Positions 9,077 to 57,300 of a stretch of DNA of 64,000 nt are shown in pieces (positions within the stretch are counted from its first letter, which is position 1; each line of letters begins with the position of its first letter). The DNA is from Haliotis rufescens (lineage: Eukaryota): NCBI RefSeq assembly GCF_023055435.1, contig NW_025964223.1:43896001-43960000 (forward strand), in the 5' to 3' direction. A program made the translations under genes and the position numbers. Under the pieces are notes generated by a model, which was not told where the DNA came from, searched no databases, and was given only the letters and a program-made list of their open reading frames with translations.

Positions 9077-12000
9077 ATGATGCAGTGGATGTTTGCTGTA
9101 ATAGCTGTTGGATTATCTGCCTTGGTCAATGTCTGTCAAGCAGAAGGTAAATACTATACAAAGCATCAATAATATGGTATAGAGATCTAGGACATACAAA
9201 TAATATTGATTTGAAATTAACGGTAACTCCATTATCGACTTTCTGATAAGTTTATAGGCATAAGCGAGATTTGTACCGTGAGTGACCCTCACATGGCCAT
9301 ATCCACGTATCTGGAACCTTTAAACCCACAGATATTGACTGTTGGAGCCAAAGAAAGGCGGCTAAAATAGTGAACATGCGAGTGTTCATGTTATATTGAA
9401 CATTGTTCTGTTATGACGCCCCCTGCACCGTCTACTTTTGTAGGTTTTATGGACGAATAGTAGTAGTACCGTAACGGTACTGCATTGTAACCTGATGCCT
9501 GGCGTAAAATCACTGTATGGCGTCATAAAAGAATGTAACTGCCCATTACGAATGGAGAGAATTATATCATTACGCACGTTTTCTTTTGTTATGTTGTGAA
9601 ATATGTAGGATGCTAACACATTGATATTATGATGTTTTGGTATAGATAAACGTTTCATCCATAAGTGGTTACAGCTTTCAAAAAAGTTAAATATTTTTAT
9701 TATGCGTGTATGCTAAAATACGTATATTTTCAAAAGTAAAAAAATTGAACAAAATTGAATAAAAATTACCCGTTAAATATTTTCAAAGTACTTCATACGA
9801 CTCTTGCTCCAAAGCTGTCTGATCACTAATACAACATTCAAGGCCAAAATAGTTTTATGATAGACATATGGAGAACATTTCCAAAAGTGTCGGTCCAGTG
9901 ACAAAAATCATGTTTAATGCAATTCCCTATTTTGACTTGTATCATAAACTTTATTCCCGTGGTCTATTTTCGGTGAACCATTTTTAGGCCTTTGCAAGTG
10001 TTTGTGACGGGTGGCAGCAGTGTGGCAGAAAATGGTCACCTTTCAGCAAACACTCGGTATCATCACTATTTCATAGTGATCAATAAACACATGCTCATGG
10101 TGCAGTCACAATAGTAAACTTGAAATTTCTTATGACCGTGGAAATGATTTCGTCGCTGTTTTAAGTACTATAGGAGAACTATTTTGTACAAATAACACAT
10201 ATAAGATGGTAGACGCGCGTTTTTTCTTAATTTTGAAGTTTATGTTTGACAAATTCCCGTTATTCTTTGTTTCTGTAGGTTCTCTGGGTGAATTGATCCA
10301 ATTATTGGCAAATTTCATGTTTCTCCAAGCGTTGTTTGCAAGTTTTATTTATAAAACATACGCTTTTCCTTAGCTTCTACTCCAACTCCCTTTACAGACC
10401 CCATATATTAGTATATATTTGCCAGAGAGTCTCGGGGCCCAAAAAGTAACCATTAGACACACAGTTTCAAGTGAAACTTTCTGGATTAATGAAACAGTTT
10501 AGTGAACAGTGTGCCCTGTGTCAAATATATTTATTACTTACCCGTTAACTTTGCTAGAAATTGTCTATCTATTTGACTTTTTCTGTTGCATTGATGGCAT
10601 ATATGTGACAACTACATCACATAAGGTGAAATTGTTTTGCAGAGGTGGAGATGTGCAATGAGGGATATGCGAGCGCACAGAACATCAATCTGACAATAGC
10701 TTTGACTCCATCTTCCTTTAGATGTTGTTGTCATCTAGATTTCAAAGCAGCTCAGACAGTATGGAGAAGGACGACTGTGGACTGTGGAATAACGCTTGTT
10801 CATGATGTAACATTCCTTGACAAAAACTGTAGTCAAAATACCAGCATTTCTCAGGCGGTCGATCAGAATAAAACAGATCTGTGTGTTGTTCGGGAGAACG
10901 GCCTTCAACAGAACAAGTCACTCACAGGCCATATGATATTGCAAGCGACAAGTTATGGTATTGTATTCAGTCTGAATCCTTATCTATTATATCATGCAGG
11001 ATGTACAGCATCACTCTATTATCTTAATGTTGTTGGCTTCTATCCCTTGGTAATTTGTAATGTTTGACTTTGACGTACAACTGATCAACCTGATATGTTT
11101 TTCATTTTGCTCGTTATTAAAACTATCATACAATTTGTTTAAAAAGTATTTCAAAACATGATCAGAAATATTGTTTTCTAGCATAGTTTAGTAACGATCA
11201 TCTAGAACTTCAATACAAATAGATTGATGTTAACAAACTGACACGCTTTGCGTCAATTACAACCTATCCGATGTTCGTAGGAGATGTAATGCTTGTTGAC
11301 TACAGTAATATAATGTTGTACAGACATAGACGTGAACTGCAGTGAGCCAGTTTTGATGAGTCCAAGCACTGGTTCCAATCCGCCAGGTGTGTCCGAGGTG
11401 AAGCCAACTACAGAATCAACTACTCCGTCAACGTCTTCAGGCAAGGAAGAACAAAACACAATGATCCACATGGAACATCAAATGATACATGTACATAATA
11501 TTACAATAATGCATTTAATTATGTCTAAACACACAAGCTAAACGTTAAACATCACAATACCCAAAGGTTGATATTTGATAATACGTCAGGATTATTTATA
11601 GGCTTCAACACTTCATCTTTGGTGTAAATTGTATGATCACAGCACACGATGCCCATTTGTTAATGTATAATATGAATGTGTTGTGAGATCCGTGAGTGAG
11701 GTTGGCTTCACACTGCATTGAACAGTATTAGAGTTATACCACGATGTGTCAGTTGACAAAGGAGAAAAGCCCGAAGTGATGCAAGTCTTAGACGTTAACA
11801 CATTTGGTTAAACCCATGAGCACGGGTATGATGCTACATACCCGATGAACGTACCGATATCTGCTGTACATGTAACAAAAACATTATATTAGTTCAAAAA
11901 CTAACTGTTTTCTCGCGAAAGATTTGATACAATAAAAGAGATAGTTTAAATTGAAGATGAACATTATCAGAGTGTATTAGGATCAGAAACGTTTCAAAAG

Positions 12001-13344
12001 AGAGTCTGATTAAAACGTTCTGGGGACATGAAAAGCATCAATATTTTCAATGTGTAAAATATATGTCTCATGATTCCGTAGGACTTTACATAGCGTTAGC
12101 GGTGGTTGGAGGCCTCTTGATGTGCATCGGTGTTGTATGCGTGATATTGTAAGTACACAGTAAAAGGTGATCATTTTCGTTATGTAAATGTGTGTGGAAA
12201 AAAACAGGGAAAAACTCACGACCTTAGCAGTACATCAGTTTGTTAAATATGAATTTAGAAATTTGTTAACGTTCAGAAATTCGCATTTACAATTTAACGT
12301 TACGCATTCACTCTGAAAAAAATCTTTCCGAATGTTAACTGTATGTAAAATGCATGGTTCTGCAGTGTTGTTTTGTCACAGAAGTAACAAATATAAGGTT
12401 AAACATACAGAGAAAATGGTAAGATAGCTGTTGCAATACGATCCATTTCCAAGGCGATAACAATCGTAGAAATATTTCTCTTTAGAAAGTATTTATTTAC
12501 TTGCAGGGTACATCGGAGGATCCAAAACTTTCCTGTGCCACAAGAGGCAGATTGTGATGTTCAAGTGAAGAGGTACAACGAAGACATTATTTTACATGTT
12601 GACCAGGCAGAAAACCAGAAAGAAACAAACGTGCCAGCGGAATGTGCTTGTGAAGATAACGGAAATAGGAGTGGCCAGGCCATTTATGGCCATTTTGATG
12701 ATGTTGACAACACAGAAAAGAACCAGGAAAATATAATTTACGAATCACAATTGACGGCTTCCTGCAATACTCTGAAACAGTACATCCAGGGCAACGTAGT
12801 GGGAGGAGATTATTATGAGGACGTTGACAACACAACAACGAACCAGAAACAGATCCCTGAATCACAATCGACAGCTTCGTGTAATTCTCTGGAACAGAAT
12901 AGCCAGGACAAGGGAGTCGGCGGAGATTATGAGGACGTAGACAACCCAACCCAATCGACAGCCTCATGTAATACTCAGGAACAGTACAGCCAGGGCAAGG
13001 GAGTCGGCGGAGAATATGAGGACATAGACAACACAGCAAAAAGCCAGGAAGATATCTCTGAATCACAATCGACGGCTTCTTGTAATTATAGTCTGAAACA
13101 GCGCAGCCAGGGCAACGTAGTCGGTGGAGATTATGAGGACATGGACAACACAGCGGATGTCAAGGAGCAACCGGCAGGACCAGGAAAGGTTGAATCTGAA
13201 AGATGCATCAAGGACATCATACAGGATAATGCATATGAAACAATGTCCATCGGAGAGGGTTATCGCAGACCAGCGTCCATTTTACAGCTTTGTCCCGAGA
13301 CCATCCTTAAAACTGGTGATATTTATGCGAAAGTGAAAAAGTAA
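9077..13344 (+). CDS. Receptor A2: complete type I membrane protein, predicted 468 aa
   Basis: Exons 9077-9146 (signal peptide MMQWMFAVIAVGLSALVNVCQAE), 10643-10957 (Cys-rich ectodomain), 11324-11440 (stalk, GC donor), 12082-12148 (TM GLYIALAVVGGLLMCIGVVCVIL), 12507-13344 (tail). Sum is 1407 nt = 469 codons, with no internal stop. Confidence 0.87.
10643..10957 (+). CDS. A2 Cys-rich ectodomain exon (315 nt)
   Basis: ttttgcag acceptor and G|gtattg donor. Pattern C-x22-CCC...C-x14-C...C. Several N-glycosylation sequons (NLT, NCS, NTS, NKT, NKS). Confidence 0.85.
12507..13344 (+). CDS. A2 terminal (cytoplasmic) exon with YED repeats
   Basis: ttgcag acceptor, in frame with ORF 12535-13344, ends IYAKVKK*. 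Confidence 0.88.
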
Positions 13345-13849
13345 TGATATCACCTTATTGACTTTGGAATGGGCTGATCAGTGCGAGACTGCATCTGATA
13401 CATGTAACAGAGCCAAAATGTGCATGGAACTCAACATTGACAGCACTATTTATTTATCTACATTCCACCATACTGACGTGTAGGCCTCCTGCGCCGTGTG
13501 GAAGTTCATACAACGTGAAGCGAAGGTCAAGTTACTGTATAATCAGAGACATGCTATTTTGATTTAAAACCGTTGATGTGAATGGTTTCTTATATAATTC
13601 AATCACTGTACATACCCCTTTAAACAAGGAACAATGGCGCTTGAATAATGATATAATGCGCTGGGAGATTGATGCAGGTATATGTGTGACATTTTCATTT
13701 TTTGCCTTAAATAGTACACATTTCACATCTATCAAGTTAAAACATGTGTAAATAATGTATTGTGTTCTGATGGTCACCTAATCCTTTTCACCCACTGTGA
13801 ATAATGTTACTTCGAAGAATTAAATTTTATTGTTCATTTTTATTTGTTA

Positions 13850-13998
13850 NNNNNNNNNNNNNNNNNNNNNNNNNNNNNNNNNNNNNNNNNNNNNNNNNNN
13901 NNNNNNNNNNNNNNNNNNNNNNNNNNNNNNNNNNNNNNNNNNNNNNNNNNNNNNNNNNNNNNNNNNNNNNNNNNNNNNNNNNNNNNNNNNNNNNNNNN
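13850..13998. other. Assembly gap (N run)
   Basis: Run of Ns. Confidence 1.
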
Positions 13999-15420: not shown

Positions 15421-17000
15421 GCTGATGTTTCAAGCGATTGCGTCTAGGACATCATTATGATCAGTACTTCATGACCGAATTGTGATCATTTCACTAAATC
15501 CCACTCAAGACGTCCAGGAATTTTTAAATTGCCGTTGAACACCAGCTCGTATAAGTATAATTGTCTGCGAATATGTGCTCATAATTGTGGAATTATTTTG
15601 TCATACATATGTTGTATTTATTTATTTGTGGCATATTTTTATATCGATATAACAAAAAAAGCAACACCACTGACAATGCATCCACCCAAGATATGTGTAA
15701 TGGATTCTTGTATGTTATAATTTATTTGATAATAAGCTTTCGTTACATCCAAACTCACAAGAATAAACATTAGAAATATATATTTTGTTATCTATAAGAT
15801 TGTTAGATTTATTGTATTGTGAAATTTTGACAGGGTGGAAGGATCATGCAGGTGTAATTAGATCAGACAAGTAATTACAGGATTAATATTATGCTTCAAG
15901 ATAATTGACAATTTCATAAGTTACTATCAATGAAACAGGAAACTGAAAATAACATACCTTTACTTTGCAAATTGAAAATAGCTTACCCTTGTTCATGATA
16001 TAGTCGAAATCGTACAGTCGACTCTTCTTTTGGCAGAATATATGGAAAAGCTTTTGTCGCTTTTTGTTTATGTATCTCACATGTAAACGTCTTCAGAAAG
16101 ACGTAGAAAGACAGAACGTACACACAGTAGTAGTTATAGAATATTTCAATGAACAACATAATTATAATAAACGCACAACACTTATGGACTAGAAAAAATG
16201 GATGGAACTTTATTGCAAAATATAATGAGGAATCTTTGGTAGTATATGAATGTTGTTAAAGAACAACAGTGGAGGGGTATTCGTGTCTGATTCCCTACAT
16301 GGGTATAAGATGTGAACACTTCTTGTGTCTACGGCCCTGCCCACTTCACTCACTGGTAATAAAAACATTGTATTTAATGTAAGAAACATATTTAAATATT
16401 CCAGGGCGTTCAGAAAAACTGTTAGCATGTCATTGCGACAAATTGCGGTCTATGATTTCGAGTTCATTTCCTCATACATTTATTCCGCCCCTTTTTGCTA
16501 TTGAAAAAATGAGGAGTTCGTTGGAGATTGTGAAAACACGAAAACTTGAGGCATTTTAAAGAAGATGTATTGAAAAAGGTTAAAGGTACCCCGTCATACA
16601 AGGTAAACATTTACACCAGAGAAAAGTCATATGTGATTTCATTGTTATCTAAAAAGCAACAAACAAATGTCCTGATTCCACATCCAAAACGTATGCATAT
16701 ACATGTAGAGGCCGAGCGATAGCGATGACGTCATAGCGGAGATACGAATGTCATTTTCCAATGTTTTAAGTGCATGAATCTGCATGACAATGAAGTGATT
16801 ATCCGTTATTCTCGGCGAATGGAAGACGTGAAATGGGATATTGTGTTGCGTTGAGGTGTACAAGTTCATCAAACAAAATTGCCGAGTGTCAGCGCTTCAA
16901 ATTGCCAAGCGAAAAGGCCGATTTAGCGACGAGGAAAGTTTGGATTGAGCGATGTTAGCGAGGAGAAAGATAGAAACCGACTGGACATGCCTTTGGATGC

Positions 17001-18970
17001 GTGTATGCGTGTACACGTGTTAGTGAGGCGTATAAATGTACACGTGTTATTGAGGCAAAAATAAGTGTACGTGTCAGTGAGGTGAATACAGTTACAGGTG
17101 TAAGTGAGGCGTATAAATGTACACGTGTTAGTGAGGTATATGTATGTACACGTGTTAGTGGGGCGTATGCGTGTACACGTGTTAGAGAGGTGTATGCGTG
17201 TACACGTGATAGTGATGCGTATCTATGTACACGTGTTAGTGATGTATATGTATGTACACGTGTGTTAGTGAGGTGTATGTATGTACATGTGTTATTGACG
17301 CGTATGTATGTACACGCGTTAGCGAGGCGTATGCGTGTAAACGTGTTAGTGAGGTATATGCGTGTACACGTGTTAGTGATGCGTATATATGTACACGTGT
17401 TAGTGAGGTATATGTACGTGCACGTGTGTTAGTGAGGTGTATGTAAGTACACGTGTTATTTGAGGCGTATGCATGTACATGTGTTAGTGATGCGTATGTA
17501 TATAAACTTGTTAGTGAGGTGAATACAGTTACATATGGTTACAGTGAGGTATATGTATGTACACGTGTTATTATGGCGTATCTATGTATACGTGTTAGCT
17601 AGGTGTATGCGTGCACAAGTGAGGCGTATGTATGTACAAGTGTTGGTGAGGCGTATGCGTGTAAACGTGTAAGTGAGGTGTATGCGTGTACACGTGTTGG
17701 TGATGCGTATATATGTACACGTGTTAGAGAGCTGTATATATGTACACGTGTTAGTGAGGCTAATGTATGTACATGTGTTAGTGTGGCGTATGTATGTATA
17801 CATGTTAATGAGGAGTATGTATGTATACGTGTTAATGAGGAGTATGTATGTATACGTGTTAATGAGGCGTATGTATGTACACGGGTTAGTCAGGCGTATG
17901 TATGTATACGTGTTAATGAGGAGTATGTATGTATGTATACGTGTTAAAGAGGCGTATGTATGTATACGTGTTTATGAGGCGTATGTATGTACACGGGTTA
18001 GTCAGGCGTATGTATGTGTGCGTGTCAAGGAGGAGTATGTATGTATACGTGTTAAAGAGGCGTATGTATGTACACGGGTTAGTCAGGCGTATGTTTGTAT
18101 ACGTGTTAATGAGGAGTATGTATGTACACGTGTTAGTCAGGCGCGAATAACACCATCTGAACATTGGAATGTACATATACAATATACATACATTATTATA
18201 AGTTTTAGTTCAGGTATGTGTACCGTTGAGCAATAAGGTGTGCCTACACTTTGTGAGACACGTAAGTAAACACAAACAGGTATATGTAGTTTATACTACA
18301 CAAACAGGTATATGTAGTTTATACCTCACGCTTCTGTAATAAATCTCCAAATGCTCACCTTCAGAAAACAGTTACACGTCTTAATGAGTTGTATATATGT
18401 ACATGTGTTAGTGAGGTGTATGTATGGTACATGTGTTATTGAGGCGTATGTGTGAACACGTGTTAGAGAGGTGTATGCGTGTACACGTGTTAGTGAGGTA
18501 TATGGATGTACACGTGTTAGTGAAGTGTATGTATGCACACCTGTTAGTGAGGCGTATGTATGTACACGTGTTATAGAGGCGTATGTATGTATACGTGTTA
18601 GTGAGGCGTATGTATGTATACGTGTTAGTGAGGCGTATGTATGTACGCTTGTTAGTGAGGCGTATGTATGTACACACGTCCTACTGACACGTATGTATGT
18701 ACACATGTTAATGAGGCGTATGTATGTACACGTGCAAGTGAGTCGTGAATTAACACCATCTGAAAAATGGAATGTAAATATACAATATACATACATTATA
18801 AAGAGTTCTATTTCAGGTATGTGTACCGTTGAGCAATTAGGTGTGCCTACACTTTGTGAGACATGTACAGTAAACACAAACAGGTATATGTAGTTTATAC
18901 TACACAAACTGGTATATGTAGTTTATACCTCAAGCTTCTGGAACAGATCTACAAATGCTCACCTTCAGAA
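17001..18970. repeat. ~27-bp minisatellite (gtacacgtgttagtgaggcgtatgtat) in two blocks, each followed by the same ~220-bp tail
   Basis: Arrays at ~17001-18145 and ~18375-18745; duplicated tails at 18147-18370 and 18749-18970. Confidence 0.92.
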
Positions 18971-19467: not shown

Positions 19468-22400
19468 ATGGAGCAAACAGAACTTGGTATCCTGATAACA
19501 TTGACACTACTGGCGGTGTGGAGATTCCCTGCTGCAGGTCAGTGTTGTGACGTGTGTCAGTTGTTACAGACCCGCGCAATGTATTGTATCAATACTAGTT
19601 ACATGTAGAGTACAAATGTCTCACGTGTCGTGTGTCTCATGTCATGAGCTCAAGGCAGTATCTGGAGCGAATGTATAACGGCTGGTAAATTAACTCAGAT
19701 ACTATCAACAACACTCTCATATTAGTTAACGTGAGACTATATTTTTATTGCAGCACTTTTGACCTCGATCCGACCTAAATATTAGTATGTGGCCATCAAC
19801 GGAGAGTTTACTTTATGTTTTGTTTGTTGTTTTACGCCGCAAACAGCAGTATTCCAGCTTTATCAGAGAGCTTGTAAATGACAGCAACATAGAACAAAGG
19901 AAAAACAATAAATGAGTAAACCATTTATAGGTATTTGTGAAAGTTGTCAGATACCCTGCGTTTACTGAAGAAACATAACCCAATGACGATGATGGGGTTG
20001 GTTTGTTCCTCACATTCACCATCACAATGGTTTCCTTATATGATTGAAATAAGTGCAGAGGGGGAGTCTTTTGGTAATCTTTAATAATTTCGAAACAAAA
20101 TGACCAAATGAGAAACAATGTTAAAGGAATAATTATATAAAACACATCAAAGAGCATTTTGAAGGCAACAGAAAACTGCAAATGAATATAGAAATGTAGA
20201 AATCTCTAATTTTAAGGCGTCATGACCATGCGAAGTTTTTTGTATATATTTAACGTTCACTTTCTACAAATATCTGCCACCATCTAGGATCTTTATTATT
20301 AGATGGTTCTGTATTTTAAATCTCCGTAAAAGGCGACTATGCTTGTCGTAAAAGGCGACTAAAGCCAGGATCGCTGACGTGGTTGATGCATGTCATCAAT
20401 CCAAATTGCGTGGATCGATGTTCATGATGTCAATCACTGGATTGTCTGGTCCAGATTCCAGGTCCAGATTATTTACAGACCGCCTTCGTATGGCTGAAAT
20501 ATTGCCCTATGCGGGGTAAATCAAAACCAACCAACCAACCAAATCATCTCCATTTGCCGAAAACATATTGGCACACATATCGAGAACAGCTGGTATTACG
20601 GGGCAATAAATTTCCGGTCATTCACCAAGTAGACTGCAGACCCTAAGTGCCCTTGCCTCGTCTTTCGTACAAGTCATAAAACTGTTGTTGGTTTACGTGT
20701 AGGTCGGGACTAATAGCTTGTAGTCTCTAATTTGACGTTTCTCAAAGGGTTTGAGATATGTTTATGACTGCGACACCTCACACCAATACACAGTCCGGGG
20801 GCTGGTTCTAGGTAAAGGTCTGTAACTGCTATTGTGTGATCTGTGTAGTCGTCGTCGAGGAGGCGTGGTAAATGAGAATGTGACAGGGGTCCTGTTGTCG
20901 CAAGTCAATATCCAAAATATGGGCATATGTATAGCCCGTCAAATAAAATGCTGACTCAACATTTTATGCGTTTACCTTGTCACAATTAACCTCTGCAGTC
21001 TGAATACGTTACTTTGTCACACATATCCAACTTTCCAGTCTACAGATATGTTTGTGAAATTCAGCATGATAAATATAATAGATTATTGTCAGTTTGTACA
21101 ATGAGCTTGGAAAATAAAAACGATAGTTACTGATTAAGTACAATGCTATTGCAATTTTATATTCAGTTTAGTATGAAGCTATTTGCTAGTTGTAAAATAG
21201 TATTAGGGGCGGATCAGCTACAGCTTCATTGATGTATGACTACAGAAAGCAGAGGATTAGCCAGTTTCAGTTCAGGTTCTCAACTGAACAAGTGCAGTAT
21301 TTTGATATTCAAGAAGCACATTCACAGTATTGATTGAATGGTCTTTGAAATTTTCGTTCAAGATCGCTTTTTGAATTGCTTGTTGGAAAATCTTACCCTG
21401 TATATGTGTGTTTCTGTGAAGAAAATCAGTGTTTCAACAGTTCAGACTGGGGTTGGGGCAATGGGGTAGTCTGGTGATTAAGTTTCACTCCAAAGGTCCA
21501 GGTTAGATACCCCACAAATACATGTAGGTACAGTACGTGAATCCCACTTCTTGTGTCCTCAGTCGTGAGGTTGCTGGAATACAGCTAAAAGCGGCATAAT
21601 TAACTCACTCAATCACTTGAGGGACCATATTTGAGGGGACCGTCTAATAATACTTCAAAAATACATTTTAAGAGTACTCTTGTCGTGTAACAGTCAAGTA
21701 GTTATTATTGTAATTCAAAAATGATACATGAAAGGTTTGCAAATTATGAAATATAATTAGGGCGTTCCATCAGAGACCAAATAATCTATTATATGGTCTC
21801 TGGTTCCATTTTATTCTGATATGTAAATGTTACCAGATTTCAAGGGCAGAATGTGAGAAGATCTTACATCCTCTCCATCAAACAACTGTACAGCATCTGT
21901 CTATGACCATTGTTAAAGCCAGCATCTAAAACAATCGTTGTGAAATATATAATTGTGATCCTTGAACTTTCACTCAACATTTTCCTGTTGTATCATGGGC
22001 CGGATCATGGTCTCAGATTGAGACTGAGTTGTCATACTTTGGAAATTTAGAATGGACGTCATTATAAAATCCCAAGAAATTAAAGAAAATGCAAACTTTG
22101 TAAATTAGACTGTGTTGAAACCGAGTATCGCTTCCTGCTTATTTGTCCATCGTATGTCAAGTTACGGCAACTATATCGCAAAGCAAAGTTCTATTGTCAT
22201 CCTAACGTCCATAAATTTAATTTGCTTCAGTCATCACCAGATACATATATTATTACAAATCTAGCAAAATATCTATATCGTGCAAATGAAGTAAGAAATG
22301 CGAAACTGAAAGCTTAAAACCTGTCTGTACTCAACTTTTGTACACAAAGGCATGTGGCCAATATGTATTGGAAATGAAATGAATGAATGAGATCATTGGC

Positions 22401-25400
22401 CTGTGGAACTGAATATCAGTTCTCTATTCTACTTAACGATGAAAGGTAAAACTGTTTACGATGTCGACTGACATGTGTTGATGGTATTACAAATACGTCT
22501 TTACATGAAGTCATTTGGTTTCGTCTAGTGTGCTGTGCATTCCATAGGCTCAAATTCGGTCACATTACGATAACAATTTGCTATAATAAATAGAAAAGAT
22601 ATCGTTCTTGTTAAATCGAATGGGTGCATTCCAGTGGTGCGGCCATTGCTCGACATTGTGATGTGTTACATGCTACATTTGTTGTCCTGTTATGGATGTA
22701 AAAGCGGCACCGATTTCTTCAAAAGAAGATGTTGCACTTCCAATCAAAATGTAGAGACAGTAAAGTAACCTAGTGAAAAGCGATGGACTAGACTAACATC
22801 TAGTCTCTGAAATAAAATATATTACATGAAAAAAAAAGTTATTAAATTACAGTTATAACATTAACATATACTACAAAGAAGACCAGGGTCTTCCTTCATT
22901 TCCTGATACAGCAGTAATCTAGACTTGCCAAATATAATGGACTTGCATGGGCTATTTTGGATATATTTGTTTCAGGGTCTGTATGACAGACTAAGCGAGG
23001 GATATCCCATTCAAAAACCGGTGTTCGATTCCTACTTCATTAAAATGTGTGAAGCCTTTTTCGGTGTTCCACTTCCGTGATGCTACTGGAATGTTGCTAA
23101 AAGCGGCGTAAAATCATACTTGTTAACTCACTAAGTCGCAAGATGATAACTCGTTGTTTCGTTTCTTCCCCAGGTGTGGGTATCTGCAGTAACGGGAACA
23201 CAGCAGATAACGACATCACCTTGAATCTGTCCACGGCGGTTTCCGGCGAAGTGTGTTGCTGCAGTTACACAGTAGCCATGGATACACAATGCACAAATCT
23301 CTCATCTTTCATAGAATACGACTGTAGCATCAATGTCTCTTTAGAATATCCCCCAATTCCTGCATGTGGAGCTGTAGGTAGCTGGTCAAGTGGTTGTGTC
23401 ACGGACACGAACAAAGACTACTCAATATGTGTCAGTCGTACTACCAGTGGACCCGTCCAGCTGGGAAATATACGTCTCAAAAGTGAAGGTACATACTAGT
23501 TTGTTTATTAGTCTCATGCACAAACATACTAGTTTGTTTACTACTCGGACCGCCTCCGTGGTATAGTGGGAGAGCGTCCGCCCGGAGAGCGGAAGGTGCG
23601 GGGTTCGATCCCCGACCGCGTCATACCAAAAGACGTTAAAAGATGGTACTTGTTCTTACCCTGTCTGGCGCTCGGCATTAAGGGGCTAAAACAAGGACTG
23701 GTCGGCTTGGAGTCAGTATACTGTGTCTGAGTGGGGTATTCATGTTAAACTGCGGCATGGTATCTCAGTGGACTAGCACTATAAATCGGCATCAGTCCGG
23801 ACGAGTACATGCATGTACATACTATTCCTTATATATTAGTTTGATTCAGGTACATACCGGTGTCTGTTTATTAGTTTAATACAGCTGCAGGTATATGGCA
23901 GTGTTTGTTTATTAATCAAATACATATATATTTATTCGTTAGTATATTGCAGGTACACAGAAGTGTATATTTAATAACATAATACATAACTGGTGTTTTT
24001 TATTTGTATGTTACAGGTTAATACCAGTTTATATGTATCTAGTACAGATTCATTCTGGTGTAAATGTATGTCTAATACAGGTACATTCTAGTGTTATATA
24101 TTTGTCTAATACAGATACATTCTAGTGTTTTATATTGGTCTAATACCGGTACATTCTAGTGTTTATATATTGGTCTAAAACAGGTACATTCTAGTGTTAT
24201 ATATTGGTCTAATACAGGTACATTCTAGTGTTTATCCATTTGGCTAAAACAGGAACATTCTGGTGTTTATATATTTGTCTAATACAGGTACATTCTGGTG
24301 TTTATATATTTGTCTAATACAGGTACATTCTGGTGTTTATATATTTGTCTAATACAGGTACATTCTAGTGTTATATATTTGTCTAATACAGGTACATTCT
24401 GGTGTTTATATATTGGTCTAATACAGGTACATTCTGGTGTTTATATATTTGTCTAATACAGGTACATTCTAGTGTTTTATATTGGTCTAATACAGGTACA
24501 TTCTAGTGTTTTATATTGGTCTAATACAGGTACATTCTAGTGTTTTATATTGGTCTAATACAGGTACATTCTAGTGTTTTATATTGGTCTAATACAGGTA
24601 CATTCTAGTGTTTTATATTGGTCTAATACAGGTACATTCTAGTGTTTTATATTGGTCTAATACAGGTACATTCTAGTGTTATATATTTGTCTAATACAGG
24701 TACATTCTAGTGTTTTATATTGGTCTAATACAGGTACATTCTAGTGTTATATATTTGTCTAATACAGGTACATTCTGGTGTTATATATTTGTCTAATACA
24801 GGTACATTCTAGTGTTTATATATTGGTCTAAAACAGGTACATTCTAGTGTTTATATATTTGTCTAATACAGGTACATTCTGGTGTTTATATATTTGTCTA
24901 ATACAGGTACATTCTAGTGTTTATATATTGGTCTAAAACAGGTACATTCTAGTGTTTATATATTTGTCTAATACAGGTACATTCTGGTGTTTATATATTT
25001 GTCTAATACAGGTACATTCTGGTGTTTATATATTGGTCTAATACAGGTACATTCTAGTGTTTTATATTGGTCTAATACAGGTACATTCTAGTGTTTTATA
25101 TTGGTCTAATACAGGTACATTCTAGTGTTTTATATTGGTCTAATACAGGTACATTCTAGTGTTTTATATTGGTCTAATACAGGTACATTCTAGTGTTTTA
25201 TATTGGTCTAATACAGGTACATTCTAGTGTTTTATATTGGTCTAATACAGGTACATTCTAGTGTTTTATATTGGTCTAAAACAGGTACATTCTAGTGTTT
25301 ATCCATTTGGCTAAAACAGGTACATTCTGGTGTTTATATATTTGTCTAATACAGGTACATTCTGGTGTTTATATATTTGTCTAAAACAGGTACATTCTGG

Positions 25401-35180: not shown

Positions 35181-38100
35181 ATGGACGTCTTGTTGACTCT
35201 CGTTTTCCTCTCACTGCCGTCAGTAAGCTCAGGTAAGAATTCACGGGTATGTTACCTAATATAATGTGTAATGGGAGCTCAGTCAAGCATTACGATTTAA
35301 GTATCTATGAGACACATTAGCCATTGTGTTTGACATCAGTATTTGTTCCCCAACCGGTTAGAAATAATCAAGTTCATAAAATAGTAAACCTTCACCGTTG
35401 TATTGTTTACGTCATCCGAAGCAGTATTCGAAATAGACATCGGTCCGTAGGATTTGTCCTCGGGATGAGAGTTTCAAATTTCACTTTATTTTAAGCTGTA
35501 AACATCGTAAATAAATCATAACACTGAGATTGCTTGGTGAAACAGGGTCCAGCTTCAAAGTACGAGGGGCGGTCGGGTAGTCTAGTAGTTAAAGCGTTCG
35601 CTCGTCACGCCGAAGACCCGGTTTCGGTTCCCGACATGCGTACAATGTGTGAAGCTCATTTCTGGTGTCCCCCGCCGTGGTATTGCTGGACTATTGCTAA
35701 AAGCTGCGTAAAACCATACTCACTCACTGAAAGTACTTTCAACACCACAGGCTGTTGTACCGGCCGCACCGTAGCCACGTCAAAATAATATGTTGTTTCA
35801 TAAACCTACCTGTCATATCATTTATTTAAATCTATCACTTTTCACAATGTCTGCAAATATGTACTTCATTTCAATTTACCATATTTTATCAATAGATTTA
35901 AAATTATGAATTATTTCCCGCAATGTTATTGAAAATGAAAATCTGGGACACATGCTTCGACAACGGGTCCAAATCAAACATGTCAAAGAGCAAACCAAGG
36001 ACGTTTCAAGCAAATCGTAAATAAATTAAGTGGTCAAATCGCCAGTACACAAAGTCAGCGATCTAACCCACTCAGCCGGACTTTCATTTTGTGGAAGCCT
36101 CGGTGGCTGAGTAGGTTAGATCGCTGACTTTGAGTGCTGGCGATAAGTTAGTTCCTCACTCTGGCAGTGTGGATTCGAATCTCGGATGCATGAGACTCAA
36201 CCCCAAAAACAATATCATTAAAATCAGACCTCAGTTCTCGCTACCGCAAAACAAAGATCTGAGGACATCCCATTAGGGGTCACGTCAGAACGACCTTTCA
36301 TCCGACCAATCAGAGCATCACTTACCAGATTATGAAAGTGACAGTCGGAATGGGATTTCTAATCATGCAACCTCGAAAACTTTAACTGCCAAAGAAAGTT
36401 ACAGGTTTAACGCCTGAATTCATACAATCTAGACCATCTATTAGCCACACAGAATGTTCTTTTGTTCAGGTTTCAAATTTGTAATCGAGAATTTGTCAAA
36501 ATATGTTTCGAAACGTAGTCGCCAATTTGAAATTAGTGCCGTAAAGCATGAGAAAGCTGCCTTCTGATTGGTCATTCCATTGGTCGGTCAAAGTTCGCTC
36601 AAGGTCGGTCTGACGTGACCCGTAATGGGATGTCCTCAGATCTTTGTTTAGCTGTAGCAAGAACTAAGATCTGATTTTAATGAGATTGCCCTAAAAAGTA
36701 CGAGAATCTGTACTTTACTGTCATCCTAAAGATAACATGTGTTACCTCTAAGTAACACTTTCCACCTTTTCGTGAGATCGTGTAATATAAGTCAAATGAC
36801 ATGTCTGCATTTGTCGCCTCGGTTTTCGGCTCGAACACGATGTTTATTGCCAAAATACATGCTTGAGAAATCTTTGTCTTTCGTCTAAATCTTAAAAGTA
36901 AATCTGAATACGAAAATACCAATTGCGAGGTTACTGTAATATTACTGATGTTCTTACGATACCAAACATCGAACGAATCTTCGCACATGTTATTTATACA
37001 AAGCTTCGAAAACGTTGGTATTTAAAGGGTATTTGTCATGCCACTGAGCGGAAGGCCACTCTAATCGGGACATATGTGATGATAGATCGTACTTAAACTT
37101 CGTTTTTTATCATTTTCTGATTACTTTAACAATGAAAATAAAAAAGAAAGAAGTCAGTGGATAGCTCTATTATGAAATGTTAATGTTGCCGAAAATCGCC
37201 ATAATTTTGGCTTCCTTGGTGCTTAACCTCGACGATATGTATGCGTCAGCTTAATTATTTCATTAAAAACGAACTTAATTTATTCAATAATGTATTAATG
37301 AAATAATGTGATAAACATAACTGTCATATTTATAAACAGTCGGATTTGACCTTTCACATGGTGTTTGCCATGAAGTAGCAAAGGTGTTTTACAAGCTGAT
37401 AATTTCCTTCATAACTGTAGGCTTCATCTATCACCACTGAGTCTCTGGGAAGTCGGTGTGATCGCAGTAAAAGCTTCTGATCTGGTTGACTGGCAGTGTT
37501 TTGTAGTTTAATATGCAAGAGAATGTCTGTCTTGTCCACTAAAATGTTTGGGCCTACAGGTTTTGAAATGTGCTGGCCCTTAAGGCTCTCATTTTACTCG
37601 ACGTGTAGACGTCATTTGACAATTGGTCGTGATCAGTGCATTTTTCAGAGGCTCAAAAGAATTAAGAAATAATGGGTAATTAAGAAATGATTGCATTCGT
37701 ATGTGCGTCATACTGATTTTACGAAACTCTTGTAAGACTTGGTGTGTTACCCTCGACTCGCTCGGGAAATACAAGAGCTCTGACACTCACGCTCGTATGA
37801 TAATCTCTATGTAATTATTTTCTACTGATGCCACCTAGACATTAGGTTATCTATCTATGTGTGATCTGTCTATAAACATGTGAGTAGATGTCCGAGTTGC
37901 CCATAAAGACCCCGGATAGTTTGCACATTTTATTTGTTGAACGAGTTCATTGCAGTACCCATGTTAAGTATACTATACCATTTAAGAATCCTTCTTGTTG
38001 TTTTGTCGGGGAATACAATATTCATGTACCCTACCGCCGAGTCCGAAACATTCATCTGTTCGAGACTATTGCGGTTCTTACATTATTAGAAGTACCACAC

Positions 38101-41100
38101 CACACGATGAACATTCACTTACCAAATGATGTAATATTCCGTCATATATTCTGGTATATATTTCTTTTATTTTTTCCGGTTACGTGGTATATATATATTG
38201 TGGCAACATGCTTTGATTAAGGGCAGACACTGCGTAATAAGGACGATCATTTCTACTATAACCATGGTAGAACACTATAGCGATCACCTGATTATGTGTT
38301 CAAGAAAGAGGTTAGCTAAATGGCTGAGATCTTGCATTTAATGTACCTCACTGACTTACATCACCGAAGTTACATAGTAATAGCAATAGAATCAGATGTT
38401 TTACTGGATACGATACCTTGCTCTGTGTACATCTGAGATAGCAGGTCGCGAGAGGTGAACTTTCAGAGCAGTCAATCAGCGTCGAGGCTTTCACATTCTT
38501 GATATCAATGACAAAAGCATTCAGACAAGCATACCTGGTTTCGAAAACGAATATAATAGAGGAGTTCCGACTGCAGAAACGGTAACTCCGTGATATTACC
38601 TTCTTGTAGATAACATCCTGTCCTTTCTGAGCACCATGACATCTTGACCCAGAAGGGTGCTATCGACGGTACGTTTGTTTTCTGTGGTGGTTTTATTTGG
38701 GGAGAACAAAATTTCCAAATCGAGGTGGTAAAGAAAATACGTCTTAGAAAGTTTACATGTGACTGACTTCAGAACTCTCGATTCCTTCATGTTCATTGGA
38801 CCTCAACGGCGATGTGGGGCGGTCGGATAGCCTAGTGGTTAAAGCGTTCGCTCGTCACGCCGAAGACCCGGTTTCGATTCCCGACATGGGTACAATGTGT
38901 GAAGCTCATTTCTGGTGTCCCCCGCCGTGATATTGCTGGACTATTGCTAAAGGCGGTGTAAAACCCCACTCACTCACCCACTCACTCAATGGCGATGTAT
39001 CGAAGCATAAAAATATTGACTACAGTCAGATTGATAAACATTAAACAAATTGTGTGTGGCTACGGGATGGTTATTGTCGTATATCAAATTATTTAAGACA
39101 CCGTTAATCATCTAACAACTGAATCGTTTTATGATATAAGCATATTTAGAACCTGTGACATATTAATAGTATGTGGTTTTGTAAGTACATTTGTAAATGA
39201 AGCGGCATGTGACAATAATACAAAATACATGTCTGTGTTTCTGCTGTTTGTGTAATTGAAGTACTGTAACTGCAGGGTGTGGCAATTAAATCACAACGGT
39301 TAATTTATTGTCAAGGTCTACAGACCTGCTCCTCTGGGACTGAGACCAGTTCTAACCAAATCATACTGGACGTGTCTACAACACAGATCAACAGATTGGG
39401 AGGCGTGTGTTCCTGTAGACTGACTGTGTCACAGATCAACACTGGGGCAGAGACAGATGTGGAGATGTTCCCTAATGGCTGGACACAGGGGTGCGATACA
39501 TACATGACTATACCGAAGTGGAGCACGGGGACACAGTGTACAAATGGCGTTGTTCAAATTCCACCTGCACAGTCTCACACCGTCACGACTGATGATGAAG
39601 TACGGATACTGGTGGTGGCTTTACTTCCTGGAACCAGAGGATTGTCAGGACAGCTGCAGTTTAAACTTAAGTCATCATTAGGTGAGAGTAATAAAGGGAT
39701 AATATTTAGAGGGTTAAAAAGCAATCGAAATTATAAGGTTGTTTTGCCATCAAAGAGGCATGTGTAATGTTCATTTTGACATTGTATGTATGTATTCTCT
39801 ATTAGAACAGGAACCTCAGGGACCTATGCTAATCGTAAGAGTCAACCAAATCGATCAGGTGGTCAGACGCGGTGACTTGATGAATGGTGTGTCCTTGCAC
39901 CCTGATCATGACTCATCTTGTATTGTCGCTTACAATATCGGTCACTGTATTATCTGGTACAGATTCAATTATATTAAATGCCGCTGGAATATTGCTGAGT
40001 GCCGAGTTAAACAACAAACAAATACACCTTTGTCACAATTCCCAAATTACTGATCCTCCCATTTGAGATGAAGAAAGTATTATATAATATTTGTTCAATG
40101 ATCATCTCTTACTTTAGTACGTCCATTGAGCAACGCCTTACGAATAGATGTGATCCATTTGGCCCTCGCATTTCGCAACCTCTCGTGTCATTTTTGACAA
40201 ATTTGAAGGCCGAATGGTGGTTCTATTGTGGACATCTTAGAACAAGCGGAGACATCTAAATATTCAGTCAACTTGTTGATTTTACAATAAGATTTACTGT
40301 AGATCATAGTACTGAAAACTCGCATACATTTCAACAGACTTGCTAAACATTGAGTGTTTTGAGCCAAACACTAACAGTTCCCAAACTGCAACTTCTTCAA
40401 CAACATCACCTGCTGGATCAACTGACGGGACATGGTCTACTACACCTACGGCAACTGAGATCCCCAAGACAACAGGTCAACCGAGCATCATTTACTTTCC
40501 AGGTACAAGTTCCTATAAATGTTTATTTCCCATATGGCTCAAAGATGGACAATCAAAATCCACAGTAATGATTTCACGAGCCCATCTGATTTACTGGTTG
40601 ACTATAAACTCTCTTACGTTTGACGGTATGTGGATACTTGATCCTTGCCACCTCGGTTATTCTGTAAAAGACACTGATTCGTTCCTACAGATACACCCAT
40701 GGTTAAAAGAGATGTGTATGTTTCATGCTCATTTGACAACATCCGTGTTGTATATCATGCATGCAATGTTCCTTTGATATGCCAATATTCTCCTGTAATC
40801 GATACACAGGTTATTAAAAACGTTTATCAACTCAATGATAAAATACATTCATGTACTGGTGAACAGTATTATCGATTGCTCCTTTAAAACGTCATTTAGG
40901 GAATGTTTTCTGGATGATGTTTGGTCCAGGTAATGACTCCTCAATAGTTCAGTTACATTGAAGTGTGTTATCGTTATGTGAGAGAAAGCCTAAAGTGACG
41001 CTGGTCGTAGGTTGTTCGTGTCAGGTGAAGCAAACAAACTTAACTATCTTATTTACACACCATGGATCCTGTCCGAACCATATCTGTTTGATCATATAAC

Positions 41101-48890: not shown

Positions 48891-49141
48891 ATCTTCAGAC
48901 CTAGCTGTTCCTAAGGGACACCGACCAGCCCTACACAAATCACACTGGGTTTGTCTACATCATAGATCAACAATGGGGGGTGGGGGGGTGGGGGGGTGGG
49001 GGTGGGGGGGGGTTGGGGGTGGTGGATGGGGGTGGGGGTGGGGGGGTGGTGGATGGGGGGGGGCTGATGGATATGTTCATATGACCTATCACAGACAAAA
49101 CAGGTGGATTTGTTCCCTGCGGGCTGGACACAAATGTGATA
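48891..49141 (+). pseudogene. Degenerate intronic copy of the 5' half of the C-type ectodomain exon
   Basis: After a ctcgcag acceptor it reads DLQT*... and later QTKQVDLFPAGWTQ..CD, with stops, frameshifts and an internal G-run. Confidence 0.7.
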
Positions 49142-49752: not shown

Positions 49753-50100
49753 TTCTACAGACCTGTTCTTCTGGGACAGAGACAGGCTCCAACCAAATCC
49801 TACTGGATGTGTCTACAACACAGATCAACACAGGGGGAGGGATGTGTTCCTGTAGGCTGACTGTGTCACAGACAGCACAGGTGGGGTTGTTCCCTATAGG
49901 ATGGACACAACAGTGTGATACATACATGACTATACAGAAGTGGAGGGCTAGTTCACAGTGTACAAATGGTGTTGGTCAAACTATACCTGGACAGATTCAC
50001 ACTGTCACCACTAGTGAGGAGACATGGATACTGGTGGTGGCTCTGCCTGGAGCCAGGGGACTGTCTGGACAGCTGCAGTTCAAGCTTCAATCGTCATCAG
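49753..50100 (+). CDS. C2 ectodomain exon (open frame)
   Basis: Overlaps ORF 49809-50120; paralogous to the C1 and C3 ectodomain exons. Confidence 0.7.
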
Positions 50101-50226
50101 GTGAGAGATGTGAGGGCTAAAAATGATCGAAGTTATGATATTGTTTTGACATAAAAATGTATTAATAATGCCATTGTACATATTGATATAGATGTAAATG
50201 TTCCATTTAAACATAAACACTGGTAG

Positions 50227-50354
50227 ACAATGTACAACAAATGGACTTGTTCAAACAATATCTGCACAGTCTCTCGCCGGTCACCACTGGTGAGTAGATA
50301 TGGATACTGGTGATGGCTACACCTGGAGCCAGAGGACTGTCAGGACAGCCGCAG
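50227..50354 (+). pseudogene. Degenerate intronic copy of the 3' half of the C-type ectodomain exon (C2 intron 2)
   Basis: Matches the QCTNG...WILV...PGARGLSGQ coding sequence, with an in-frame TAG (gagtagatatgg). Confidence 0.7.
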
Positions 50355-52282
50355 AAGTGAACAAAAACCTTATGTATTATGTTAATGGTGTTCGCAATGA
50401 AACTTTAATTTTGCTTCCTCAAAATCCAAAAAAATGTATTTTCTATAAATAGGAAGAACCCGTGTAATAGTATTCTGATTTCGCAAGATCCAGGAAATTA
50501 TTTCTTTATAATGATATTTATATTCTACGGGGCATTCACATCACATCCTCAAGGGGAATTTCAAAACAATTGAAGACAATAGTATTGATGCTTCGCTTTC
50601 ATTTCAGCAGGCCAGCTAAAGATAGATTGTTTTGAGCCAAACACTAACAGTTCCACAACTACCCCTCTTTCAACAACCTCGGTTTCAACATCTTCGTCGA
50701 CATTAACTACAACCACTTCTCCCAAAACAACAGCAGTAACGACAACTACAGAGATACGTATATCCACACAAAAGCCTACCACAGAGACACAACTTCCAAC
50801 CTCCATTACTCCTCAAGGACAAACGACATCTTTGTCGACTGGTGTAACTGCAGGGGCAGAGACTACTAAAGCTACTACAACTCAGATCCCAAAGAAAAGC
50901 TTTCCAGGTACAAATTTCTTAAAATGTTTATTACTCATGTGGTTTGAAGCGTGATTGCTGCAAACCCTATCATGGTTGAAGGTATGTAGATAACACAGTT
51001 ATTTCTATAGAGGGCACCAATTCTTTCCTACACCTAAAATTAACAAGACGATTTGTATTGTTCATACTCATTTTACAAAATATTTGTCATAAGTCATGCA
51101 TGACACACTCGTGGATATAGTGCCCGCATTATATGCCCTTATTTTCCTGCCATCGGTAGACAGGTTTTCCTGGAATAGTTTTTTCAACTCAATAATAAAA
51201 TATGTTCATGTACTGGTGAAAAGTATTATTGAATGTTCCTTGAAACTTCATTGTATTAAGGGAATGTTTCCTTGATGTCTAAACCAGGAAATACAATATT
51301 TCAGTTACACTGCAGTGTTTCATTATAATCCGAGAAGAAAACCCAAAGTGATGCTCGTGGTAGGTTACGGGTGTAATGTGAGGCACAGAAGCATCCACCA
51401 AGGGTCATAATCAAAACATATCTGTACATATAACACTTCGGAGCAGTCCTTGGATCTTGGCAGTAACTAATATATGAGACAGATTCGTCCCGTGTCTCCA
51501 CATAGTAAGGTGTTATAATGTCTGTGATTGTGATATCATTATGGGTTTTATCGCAGGTGGTATCTTTGCTGCCGGACTTGCTACAGGTGTCGTGCTGGTC
51601 GTCATTGCTGGTGGACTATACGTCGCCATATCAAGGTACAGACATTGAAGCCAACTGACTCTATAAATGTATGCTTTGTCAACACCAATGGTCAAGGCTG
51701 ATCGGTACATGTAGACAAACATGGAGATTCTATGTAACAGTTGTTCGAAGTGGATAATGTTACTTTAATTAAACATGATTAATAATGGTTTGTTTTGCAG
51801 AAGATGGTGTAGGTCCCGCCACGAGAAGTCTGATGACATTCCAGTCTCTGAAGTCCACCCCACCTACTCAGGGCTCAAACCCAGAACACAGGAGCCGAGT
51901 AACACCTATGACATAATAGATCCAAATCCCTCAAAGGGCACAGCAAATCCATACATCAATGTGACATAGATATACTGCAATTTGTTTTGCATCTTGTTTA
52001 ACGAGAGAAGGGTTAATTTAGTAGCCCTGGTTACCACAATTATTTTAACATTGATTGGATGCATCTAACATATTCAGTCTCAGTGTATGTTGTGTGTATA
52101 TGAACAACCGCGTACGTTCAAATCTGGAGCCTGTGTTTCACAATGCGTGGATATGGACATCCGTACATGTGCATGTAGATCCAGGACTTTGTACCACACG
52201 CCATGACTAATAAGGACATTACGTGCACTGCAAATCAAATACATGCCTACGCCTAAAGTTGAAATCCAAAAGAGAGTTAACG

Positions 52283-54350: not shown

Positions 54351-57300
54351 ATGGACGTCTTGTTGACTCTCGTTGTCCTCACACTGCCGTCAGTAAGCTC
54401 ATGTAAGAACTCAGCCATATGCTGGTAATTATGTTTAACTTATACACTATGTAATAGGCGCTCAGTCAACATTGCTCTTCATGTGTCAGGTATTGGCTTT
54501 GTACGTATGTCACCCATACATTATTAGGTCATCTAACTATGTGAAATTTATCTTTTAACACGTGAGTAGATGTCCGAGTTGCCCATACAGACCCAGGATA
54601 GATTTCACGGTTTTATTTGTTGAACGAGTTCATTGCAGTACATATGCTAAGTGTTCTATCAAATTTGAGACTCTTCTGTGTTGTTGGTCAGAGAACATAA
54701 TAAGATCTCCAATATACATGAAGTTAAATTACGATTCGATTGCTTACCCAGCCGCCGAGACCAAAATAGTCAAAATAATAGGCTATTTATATTGCGCATA
54801 TTTCCACACCACTGCTCAAAGCGCTATTATTACCCCGGTCACTGGATCAATGTGCACTTAAGAATCATTCCCAGCTCCCTGGGGAGTATACAACCCAAGA
54901 TGCCTGCTAGAAGGTTAACAACCACATGTTCATCTCATCCTTTCGGGTACCCATTCACTGCTGGGTGGAAAGAGGCACATTTCGAAAAAGGTCACTTGCC
55001 CAAGGAGACGCCACATGTGTTATATGTGCTTCAGGCTAAGGCAGAACGGAAGTCCTAGAAACTGTCAGGAGCCAAGCTGCCGAAACGCGGTCACCCATTC
55101 AAGGACGCTCCGCGACCGACGCTGATAGCCTATCTCTTTCCAATAGATCGTATCCTTATTAACAGTATGTATACCACCCGACGATGTTTCATAGACTCAA
55201 TGAGTAATATGTAAAATTGTAAACTTGCACATATATGATGAGTTCATTTGACTTAATTCCACCCCGTCCTGTTTTCTACGTCCCATTTCCAATACGTCTA
55301 AATGTGGAAGTTGTAACACCATAGTGTACTTCTAAGCCATGCCAGTGTCGCTTCATTTTCCCAAGCGCGAAACGAGTGTGTTTTAATTCCTGCAATATAT
55401 TTTTCATAATTATCCCTGTTAGGTGATTTAAATATGGTGGTAAAATGTGTGCGTTGTGTAAGCGAACATTCTGGGAAATATAGCCGATCTGTGATTGTTA
55501 CTGATTCCTGAATTCTTACATACAAAATACAGTCGACTGTGTCAAAGGGAGTCACTCATCACTTCTACTATAACCAAAGAGAATGTGTTTGCTGAGATAT
55601 TGCTGATACGACATTAATTGTACCTCACCCACTTAGAACACAGAAGTATCATTATAATAATCTCCTTAAAATCAAATCTTTTACTCCGTAATTCTCGTGA
55701 TAGGAGGTCGAATCAGGTGATCAGGTGTTACTTGAAAAGGAACATAATCGAGGAGATCCGATTGCTAAAAAGAGTAAAGCCGCGCTAATACATAGTTGTG
55801 GACATTTTAAACATTATGGCATCTACACCCAAAAGGGTGCATTAATCGTGGGTCATTTTGTTTTCTGTGGTGGATTTCTTTTGCTGAGATCGAAATTTCC
55901 GAATGTTGGTGATAGAAAAATAACCCATATGTGTAAGAGAAAGCTGACATCTAACTTGCCCTCGCATACTTTATCAGTTTGATTGGGCGGTCACAACTCG
56001 CTCAGGGTTCACCTGACGCCACCTTCTGTTGGGTATCGGAGTAGAAAATCTGATTTAAGTGAGATTGATATACATAAGGAAACTCAGTAGGTAAAATCTC
56101 TGTCACTCACTTAGAAAACAGAAATAACATTATCTTTACTCCTACACGATTCCTCTCTGCGTGGAGATCTGAGACAGGTGGTCGAGTCAGGTGAACTTTC
56201 TAATCAACCAATCAGCGTCGAGGCTGCCATATTCTCGGCACCAGTGACAAAAGCATTCAGACAAGCAAATTTGATTTCTGTTACTCGAAAACGAATATAA
56301 CTGAGGAGTTCCGTAGCCAAAATGTATAACCGCACTATTGCTGTTGTGGATATGTTGAACATCCACCCGTTTCTGAGCGCCATGACATCTATACCCAAAC
56401 CGGGGCACTATCGAGGGAATTTTTGTTTTCTATGGTTGTACAGAAACGAAGTGGAACATAAATAAAGCAGATACCTCTTACAAAACTTACACATGAACGT
56501 CTCACGCATCCTAATTGTGTTTATTGGTACCGTCTGCGGAGATGTATGGGAGTAAACTTGAGTGAGACTGATATATACAAAGAAACCCAGTAGTTATAAA
56601 CACGACTGTAACACTACGCACTGATCTTTGTCATACATCAAATCATTTATGACACTGGTTATTGTCTTCTACCAACTGAATTGTCTTATGATATAAACAT
56701 GATATTTAGAATCTGACGAAAAGTATTAACATAATGTGTTTTTTCGGTATGGATATCGGCGTATGTGTACATGATGTACTGTATTTCCGTGTAACTGTAG
56801 GGTGTGACCGTTAAAACATAATTTGTATTTACTGTCAAGGTCTACAGACATGCTCCTCTGGGACAGAGACAGGCTCCAACCAAATCCTACTGGATGTGTC
56901 TACAACACAGATCAACACAGGGGGAGAGATGTGTTACTGTAGACTGATCGTGTCACAGACAACACAGGTGGAGATGTTCCCTACTAGCTTGACAGAACAA
57001 TGTGATATATCCATAACCATAAAGAAGTGGAGGACTAGTTCACAGTGTACAAATGGTGCTGCTCAAACTATACCTGGACAGACTCACACTGTCAACACCA
57101 GTGAGGAGATATGGATACTGGTGGTGGCTACAAGACCTGGAGCCAGAGGACTGTTAGGACAGCTGCAGTTCAGGCTTAAATCGTCATCAGGTAAGAAATA
57201 TGAGGGCTCAAAAATGATCGAATTGATTATATTGTTTTGACATAAAAATGTATTAATAATATACATTTGGATATAGATGTATATATTCCATTTAAAAAGA

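Follow-up and report, generated by a model that had tools for sequence, protein, structure and literature searches.

CUB domains (PF00431) occur in proteins such as Kremen1, MASP, neuropilin, and spermadhesin. In CDCP1/Trask, DCBLD, and Kremen, a divergent CUB ectodomain is combined with a single helix and a non-catalytic tail, and CDCP1 is described as a substrate and binding partner of Src-family kinases (PMC3534080, PMC3084758). The Alr genes of Hydractinia, as presented in PMC9546547, are clustered and receptor-like; they encode Ig and Fn3-like folds in unrecognisably divergent domains with non-canonical paired cysteines, carry tails of the immunoreceptor tyrosine-based activation or inhibitory motif (ITAM/ITIM) type, and have a demonstrated role in allorecognition. 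In the mollusc Biomphalaria, the PTC1/GRC, PTC2, and LG5R clusters encode single-pass proteins, vary in copy number, and are linked to parasite resistance; the domains annotated in them are Fn3, Ig-like, EGF, and fucolectin, and CUB is absent from the main text of the paper (PMC13712769). Here we analyze a window of 64,000 nucleotides from the abalone Haliotis rufescens (assembly GCF_023055435.1, contig NW_025964223.1, positions 43,896,001 to 43,960,000 of the forward strand). Its five genes, A2, B, C1, C3, and C2, are members of a large tandem abalone family of single-pass membrane proteins. According to structural models, their outer domain is very likely a CUB-like jelly-roll, calcium-free and extended by an 11th strand.

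The abalone genes resemble CDCP1/Trask, DCBLD, and Kremen in overall plan, and CDCP1 is an Atlas lead for protein P0001 (0.81; a lead only). However, they are not orthologous by any test and form a tandem, fast-turnover family whose members carry one to four domains on a mucin-type stalk. They resemble Alr in their clustering, divergent domains, paired cysteines, and tyrosine-bearing tails, but the predicted ectodomain is CUB-like and the recognition role is a proposal. With the Biomphalaria clusters they share a molluscan, single-pass organization and variation in copy number. We consider it reasonably probable that the gene products are type I membrane proteins in which a CUB-like domain serves as a variable recognition receptor signalling through the tail. 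The best reading of our analysis would be a variable binding domain raised on a stalk and linked to conserved tails at which SH2 proteins dock. Among possible settings, a role in immunity or self/non-self recognition is the likeliest, although we place its chance a little short of even. More tentative is the full proposal of a molluscan variable-receptor family built on a CUB-derived domain rather than on Ig or lectin, with disulfide staples from flanking exons, rewiring by micro-exon loss, tails swapped in the manner of activating and inhibitory paired receptors, and a function in immunity or allorecognition. If true, dozens of genes whose automatic names are ‘mucin-like’, ‘DAN4-like’, or ‘uncharacterized’ would be united in a single receptor family that shares a definable domain, and this in a farmed animal about whose recognition receptors little is known. 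To the Ig, Fn3, and lectin scaffolds known from variable-receptor clusters in invertebrates, a CUB-type scaffold would be added, and the family would offer a clean test case for the joint loss of a disulfide pair and a micro-exon.

The five core exons in the window are all on the plus strand, have phase 1-1 boundaries and AG/GT ends, and start four codons upstream of the first cysteine. Each gene encodes a signal, the core domain, a Ser/Thr stalk, one hydrophobic helix, and a tail without catalytic domain (Table 1). In-silico splicing of A2, B, C1, and C2 produces open frames of 468, 281, 271, and 320 amino acids, respectively. The joint 39681-40338, between the core and stalk exons of C1, is present in contigs from three of four public runs, and contigs from all four join the exons on either side of the next two introns of C1 (three studies overall); the RNA status of these runs is the guess of the search tool. 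Together, the open frames and the C1 joints argue that the gene pattern did not arise by chance. Protein P0009 is a 100% match to the signal and core exons of C1. Public-run contigs matching window positions 1-13800 are almost only repeats and have no bearing on the expression of type A.

At least 36 intact core exons are present on this contig, comprising 3 of type A, 1 of type B, 7 of type C, and 25 of type D, which is more divergent, at 43.68 to 44.90 Mb and 47.05-47.13 Mb. This is a lower bound: the region 43.54-44.40 Mb was scanned in full, and other regions at the matches of an own-genome search only. With a profile of C and D, the domains of A2, A1, and B outscored 200/200 shuffles with fixed cysteines and that of A0 outscored 199/200, so the four types constitute one family. 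An A-only profile compared with a C-only profile by hhalign gave no significant alignment. A profile search against 1.84 billion representatives returned 22 matches at E<=0.001, with Gigantopelta and the scallop Mizuhopecten among their sources. Types A, B, and C were found only in Haliotis, with intact orthologues in three or more further species of this genus. Two relatives, P0038 and P0039, are automatically named ‘Ig-like’. In an Atlas query with residues 23-160 of P0039, the top matches were unnamed clusters (0.94 Mollusca, 0.89 Rotifera, 0.89 Mollusca); as a lead only, the domain may extend across Spiralia. An earlier description of this family was not found in the literature searched, which had most subscription journals and supplements outside its scope.

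The fold assignment derives from AlphaFold2 models of the C type (P0009, 42 sequences) and the A type (the A2 orthologue P0023, 25 sequences). MAFFT placed A and the second half of B out of register; a register matched on cysteine spacing and exon length was used instead, and the A model depends on this hand-chosen alignment. The C1 model (P0009) is an all-beta domain, with block means of the predicted local distance difference test (pLDDT) of 74-95 over residues 21-150. When compared with 48,161 chains, its ranks 1-18 were all CUB-bearing and the first non-CUB row had Z 6.6. The best match was Kremen1 (Z 8.9, root-mean-square deviation (rmsd) 2.4 A, 100 residues aligned), and others included MAP44 (Z 8.1), spermadhesin (Z 8.0), and MASP (Z 8.0). 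Cys22 of the P0009 model is the first residue aligned with 3dem_A, at residue 166, the start of CUB2. Since the CUB alignments stop near residue 137, upstream of a strand at 141-147 encoded by the next exon, this strand represents an addition to the CUB fold. The A model (P0023) has 11 strands in a jelly-roll of the same kind, and both models add the 11th strand from the next exon. Among the same chains, it matches 3dem_A (Z 7.3, 28..126 to 166..278) and 1spp_A (Z 7.7), and its CUB matches as a whole (Z 6.5-7.7) lie over the same target ranges as those of the C model.

Several structural results count against a CUB assignment. The top rows for the A model are calpain-7 domain III and the collagen-binding domain of ColG, both at Z 9.6, and GOLD at 8.1, all above CUB; the Z scores of 8-9 for the C model are only modestly over the stated background best Z of 7-8; and Foldseek returned no match to the C model at E<=0.001. 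At the same threshold, Foldseek gave six rows for the A model, all of them bacterial jelly-rolls with poor rmsd. As the A model is led by non-CUB jelly-rolls, a shared jelly-roll is no proof of CUB ancestry. CUB ranks first among the families for the C model, but not for the A model. A preliminary description of the window had suggested that A, B, and C share a divergent CUB-like beta-sandwich; the models bear this out for C and, with less specificity, for A, which has the same jelly-roll with CUB ranked below calpain-III, ColG, and GOLD. The top rows in both structural searches are jelly-roll sandwiches and not Ig or lectin folds, although families outside those listed could still match. The fold check recommended in that description, by AlphaFold, Foldseek, and structural search, gave jelly-rolls for C and A, led by neither Ig nor lectin.

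At the sequence level, the CUB-like reading fails the tests for Pfam CUB membership, while it is supported as a fold by the models. Pfam gave no CUB-clan match with the five exons of the window, 11 members of the alignment, or 17 full-length proteins, and searches of PDB sequences with the domain gave no match. Comparison of the domain profile with 12 canonical abalone CUBs, which also speaks against the assignment, reached E 0.16 and a score of 12.0, not significant next to a column-shuffled maximum of 14.7. In this best alignment, cysteines C2, C4, and C5 fall on CUB cysteines and YC falls on GFxA; with respect to the two CUB disulfides, the first cysteine coincides by aligned range and the others only in this non-significant alignment. 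The SPxYP loop and the CxW Trp, present in cubilin and neuropilin, are absent in 34/34 rows, which have an LD[TSV]S-type loop and CxC instead. Calcium-binding CUBs are described as using one Glu and two Asp as calcium ligands (PMC10214685); judged by sequence, acidic residues are not conserved in our alignments where YD or SD would be expected. The domain is thus unnamed in Pfam and without canonical CUB residues, as had been anticipated. Its likeness to CUB lies in the predicted 10-strand jelly-roll (2.4-3.1 A over about 100 residues) and in four cysteines at or near canonical positions. Besides the absent residues, it differs in the 11th strand and in one to three extra predicted disulfide pairs, some across exons.

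It could be argued that the jelly-roll has an independent origin, with a calpain-III, GOLD, or collagen-binding topology, and that its resemblance to CUB is a convergence of shape only. The ranking of the A model, its calpain-III type matches that cover strand 11 (22..136), and the missing sequence signal to CUB are all in line with this. Nevertheless, we find it improbable: CUBs fill the leading ranks of the C model, the first cysteine of the domain coincides with the first of CUB, and the best, though non-significant, profile alignment places C2, C4, and C5 on CUB cysteines. Furthermore, every Atlas feature match with a Pfam family belongs to the CUB clan (scores 0.77-0.86; leads only), and bounding by phase 1-1 exons is typical of CUB modules.

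The types differ in their cysteines. Core exons encode 7 in A2, 9 in B, and 5 in each of C1, C3, and C2, and the next exon provides one further domain cysteine per gene, for totals of 8, 10, and 6. These totals, the final cysteine on the next exon, and the spacings C-x22..26-CxC and C-x13/14-C are as the preliminary description had them. Five core cysteine columns are invariant in 34/34 aligned domains. The middle cysteine of CCC and the cysteine of [L/I]CV co-occur in 6/6 A/B rows and 0/28 other rows, and the B-only pair is present in 2/2 B rows and nowhere else among the 34. The suggested covariation of cysteine pairs agrees with these column counts, which represent one or two evolutionary events only.

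The outgroup, type D, has eight cysteines in its domains, including a pair that A, B, and C jointly lack. One member, C0, is located 10-15 residues before the first core cysteine, and the other, C6, in strand 10. C6 is present in 21/21 D rows with a residue there and in 0/11 A/B/C rows; both occur together in 18/18 D domains (13 full-length proteins, some redundant). In five of seven D proteins mapped, C0 is on its own short exon, whereas the A, B, and C genes have their signal exon spliced directly to the core exon with no such micro-exon between. As the 8-Cys form is found in scallop and Gigantopelta and types A, B, and C only in Haliotis, sequence comparison points to a likely history in which the micro-exon and its partner C6 were lost (8 to 6) and new pairs then arose in A/B (8) and B (10). 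The idea that cysteines were gained in pairs from 6 to 8 to 10 fits the extra pairs of A/B and B but is incomplete: it leaves out the loss that likely came first, the different pair of the outgroup, and A1, whose count can be odd. Two other correspondences were rejected. The [L/I]CV cysteine does not represent C6, given that it is 19-24 residues from the exon end rather than about 8-10, and the signal-exon cysteine of A is not a retained C0, as it is at the likely -3 cleavage position and is missing in A1 of this genome.

Some observations fit this scheme less well. In a tree computed without the cysteine columns, A, B, and C are each supported, but A+B+C reaches only 74/90 and A and B are not joined, so the pairs could have been gained in more than one order after the loss. 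A1 has an extra core cysteine, giving a domain count of 9 when the one-Cys stalk exon is used; the count is odd unless the two-Cys stalk exon (860-961) is used. Since the A1 stalk copies have 2, 1, and 0 cysteines, their alternative use would set the extra core cysteine paired or free. The H. cracherodii A1 orthologue P0015 has 9 cysteines after the likely signal cut, and P0003 and P0004 of H. rubra can have odd counts. The latter two have two tandem core exons but a single exon for strand 11, so that the first domain has only 5 cysteines, which could reflect either an error of annotation or an unpaired cysteine.

Based on CUB topology and co-occurrence, the bonds C1-C2 and C4-C5 (numbered as cysteines, not genes) would be the two canonical CUB disulfides. 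The second cysteine of CxC, in place of the CUB Trp, would staple strand 11 of the next exon, and the outgroup C0-C6 bond would have disappeared along with the C0 micro-exon. The A model places Cys52 on strand 4 and Cys104 on strand 9. These strands are adjacent in CUB topology, which fits the pairing of the CCC-middle and [L/I]CV cysteines predicted in the preliminary description; A and B would have such a strand 4-strand 9 bond, and B another between strands 5 and 8. C2 has extra cysteines at residue 230 (stalk) and residue 18 (signal junction). A lone membrane-proximal stalk cysteine accompanied by GxxxG motifs in the helix is found in C2 (residue 230), P0005, P0008, P0010, and P0014, and from sequence these could be candidates for dimer formation.

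YxxPhi motifs are found at 24/43 Tyr in nine cytoplasmic tails, compared with a shuffle mean of 7.8 and maximum of 16 (0/2000 as high), although tail repeats inflate this count. They include 8/10 and 7/12 Tyr in the A and long C tails, in acidic-context repeats; A tails repeat YED[VIM] and long C tails repeat YAVV. C tails contain YSGL-x10-YDII and YINV and a scallop tail contains YEGL-x11-YEVL, the form YxGL-x10/11-YxxI/L being common to abalone C tails and this one scallop tail. A C-type ectodomain is also found on a long YAVV tail (L034:6588-6941, L035:8382-9299; P0011, P0012, P0018), other C genes have a 50-residue tail, and A genes have long and short tails. This association of the same ectodomain with different tails resembles the tail exchange of paired receptors.

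If the proteins are receptors, the stalk would raise the domain over the glycocalyx and ligand binding would lead to receptor clustering. A Src-family kinase might then phosphorylate the tail tyrosines and allow SH2 proteins to dock, in a CDCP1-like manner. Two tail results are unfavorable: a strict ITAM, Yxx[IL]x6-9Yxx[IL] (PMC9546547), is present in 0/9 tails, with relaxed x6-12 spacing in 3/9, and YxxPhi accounts for 0/3 Tyr in the B tail. An alternative is that proteins of the same fold are adhesion or glycocalyx parts of mucus, mantle, neural, or gamete surfaces, with spermadhesin-like homophilic or glycan binding and tail tyrosines serving mainly in sorting and endocytosis. YxxPhi doubles as an AP-2 sorting signal and B lacks it, while the long Ser/Thr stalks, the automatic ‘mucin-like’ names, and spermadhesin among the top fold matches of both models point the same way. 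However, the many acidic-context tyrosine repeats and the two-tyrosine motif shared with scallop are more than sorting needs, and one ectodomain type is paired with different tails. Adhesion as the main role hence seems rather unlikely to us.

The amino-acid distance between five close C paralogues is 0.21 for the core exon and 0.04 for the tail; their DNA distance is 0.107 in the core exon and similar, 0.087 and 0.128, in the flanking introns. Pairwise ratios of nonsynonymous to synonymous substitution rates (dN/dS) are 0.36-1.47 in C and 0.76-1.21 in A. On these comparisons, ectodomain change is relaxed or diversifying, and positive selection is not proven. Diversification by ligands is disfavored by the pooled C core exons, where the corresponding ratio of proportions (pN/pS) is below 1 (0.159/0.223), and by variability that is not raised in the usual CUB ligand-binding loops (1.01 vs 1.07 bits). 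The expansion of A, B, and C might instead be mostly neutral birth-and-death, with fast ectodomain change due to relaxed constraint. This possibility, which we consider doubtful, is consistent with core-exon divergence equal to that of introns, pairwise dN/dS mostly below 1, the stop in C3, two frameshifted C copies, and partial relic exons scattered in introns. Yet the core cysteines are invariant and the tails of the same genes are conserved, orthologues remain intact in the other Haliotis species, and C1 is spliced in contigs of three studies.

The in-frame TAA of C3 is codon 17 of the signal exon (window 46859-46865), and the database model P0017 for this gene begins at an internal Met; C3 is likely to be a pseudogene or null allele. 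The two frameshifted C copies are at L029 and L033.

Table 1. Exons and related features of the abalone receptor-like genes, in window positions unless indicated.
Feature	Position	Strand	Remarks
A1 core exon	just upstream of window, L046:9325-9642	+	8 Cys in exon
A1 stalk exon, three tandem copies	860-961, 1499-1612, 1876-1989	+	2, 1, 0 Cys
A1 transmembrane exon; long tail exon with Tyr repeats	4317..5756	+	bounds by analogy with A2
A2 signal-peptide exon	9077..9146	+	
A2 core exon	10643..10957	+	predicted CUB-like strands 1-10; 7 Cys including CCC, LCV
A2 strand-11 Cys (DIDVNC) and Ser/Thr stalk exon	11324..11440	+	
A2 transmembrane exon	12082-12148	+	
A2 tail exon	12507-13344	+	repeated YED[VIM] motifs, terminal IYAKV
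B signal-peptide exon	19468..19537	+	
B core exon	23174..23488	+	9 Cys: CCC, ICV, B-only pair at residues 63, 98
B strand-11 Cys exon (LVNLTC)	25922-25969	+	
B stalk exon	26207-26248	+	
B transmembrane exon	27018-27084	+	
B tail exon	27655-27958	+	
C1 signal-peptide exon	35181..35232	+	
C1 core exon	39316..39681	+	5 Cys; structure modelled as part of P0009
C1 strand-11 Cys (LNIEC) and stalk exon	40338-40502	+	
C1 transmembrane exon	41222-41300	+	
C1 tail exon	41474-41627	+	YSGL/YDTI/YTSV motifs
C3 gene	46814..51969	+	signal exon carries in-frame TAA
C3 core exon	49753-50100	+	5 Cys
C3 stalk exon (LKIDC)	50611-50907	+	
C3 transmembrane exon; tail	51557-51635; 51801-51969	+	
C2 gene	54351..59019	+	signal exon 54351-54402
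C2 core exon	56840-57190	+	5 Cys
C2 stalk exon (LNIEC)	57597-57908	+	extra membrane-proximal Cys
C2 transmembrane exon; tail	58609-58687; 58851-59019	+	
Degenerate partial core-exon copy	57280..57463	+	in-frame stop
Core-exon relics like 57280..57463	near 48903-49133 and 50216-50354		

The intron after the A2 stalk exon starts with GC (GC-AG; window 11440-11442), and the A1 stalk copies have GT at this position. Tandem repeats in intronic and intergenic parts of the window, at 17000-18900, 23800-25530, and 29290-30370, give rise to spurious Cys-rich reading frames.

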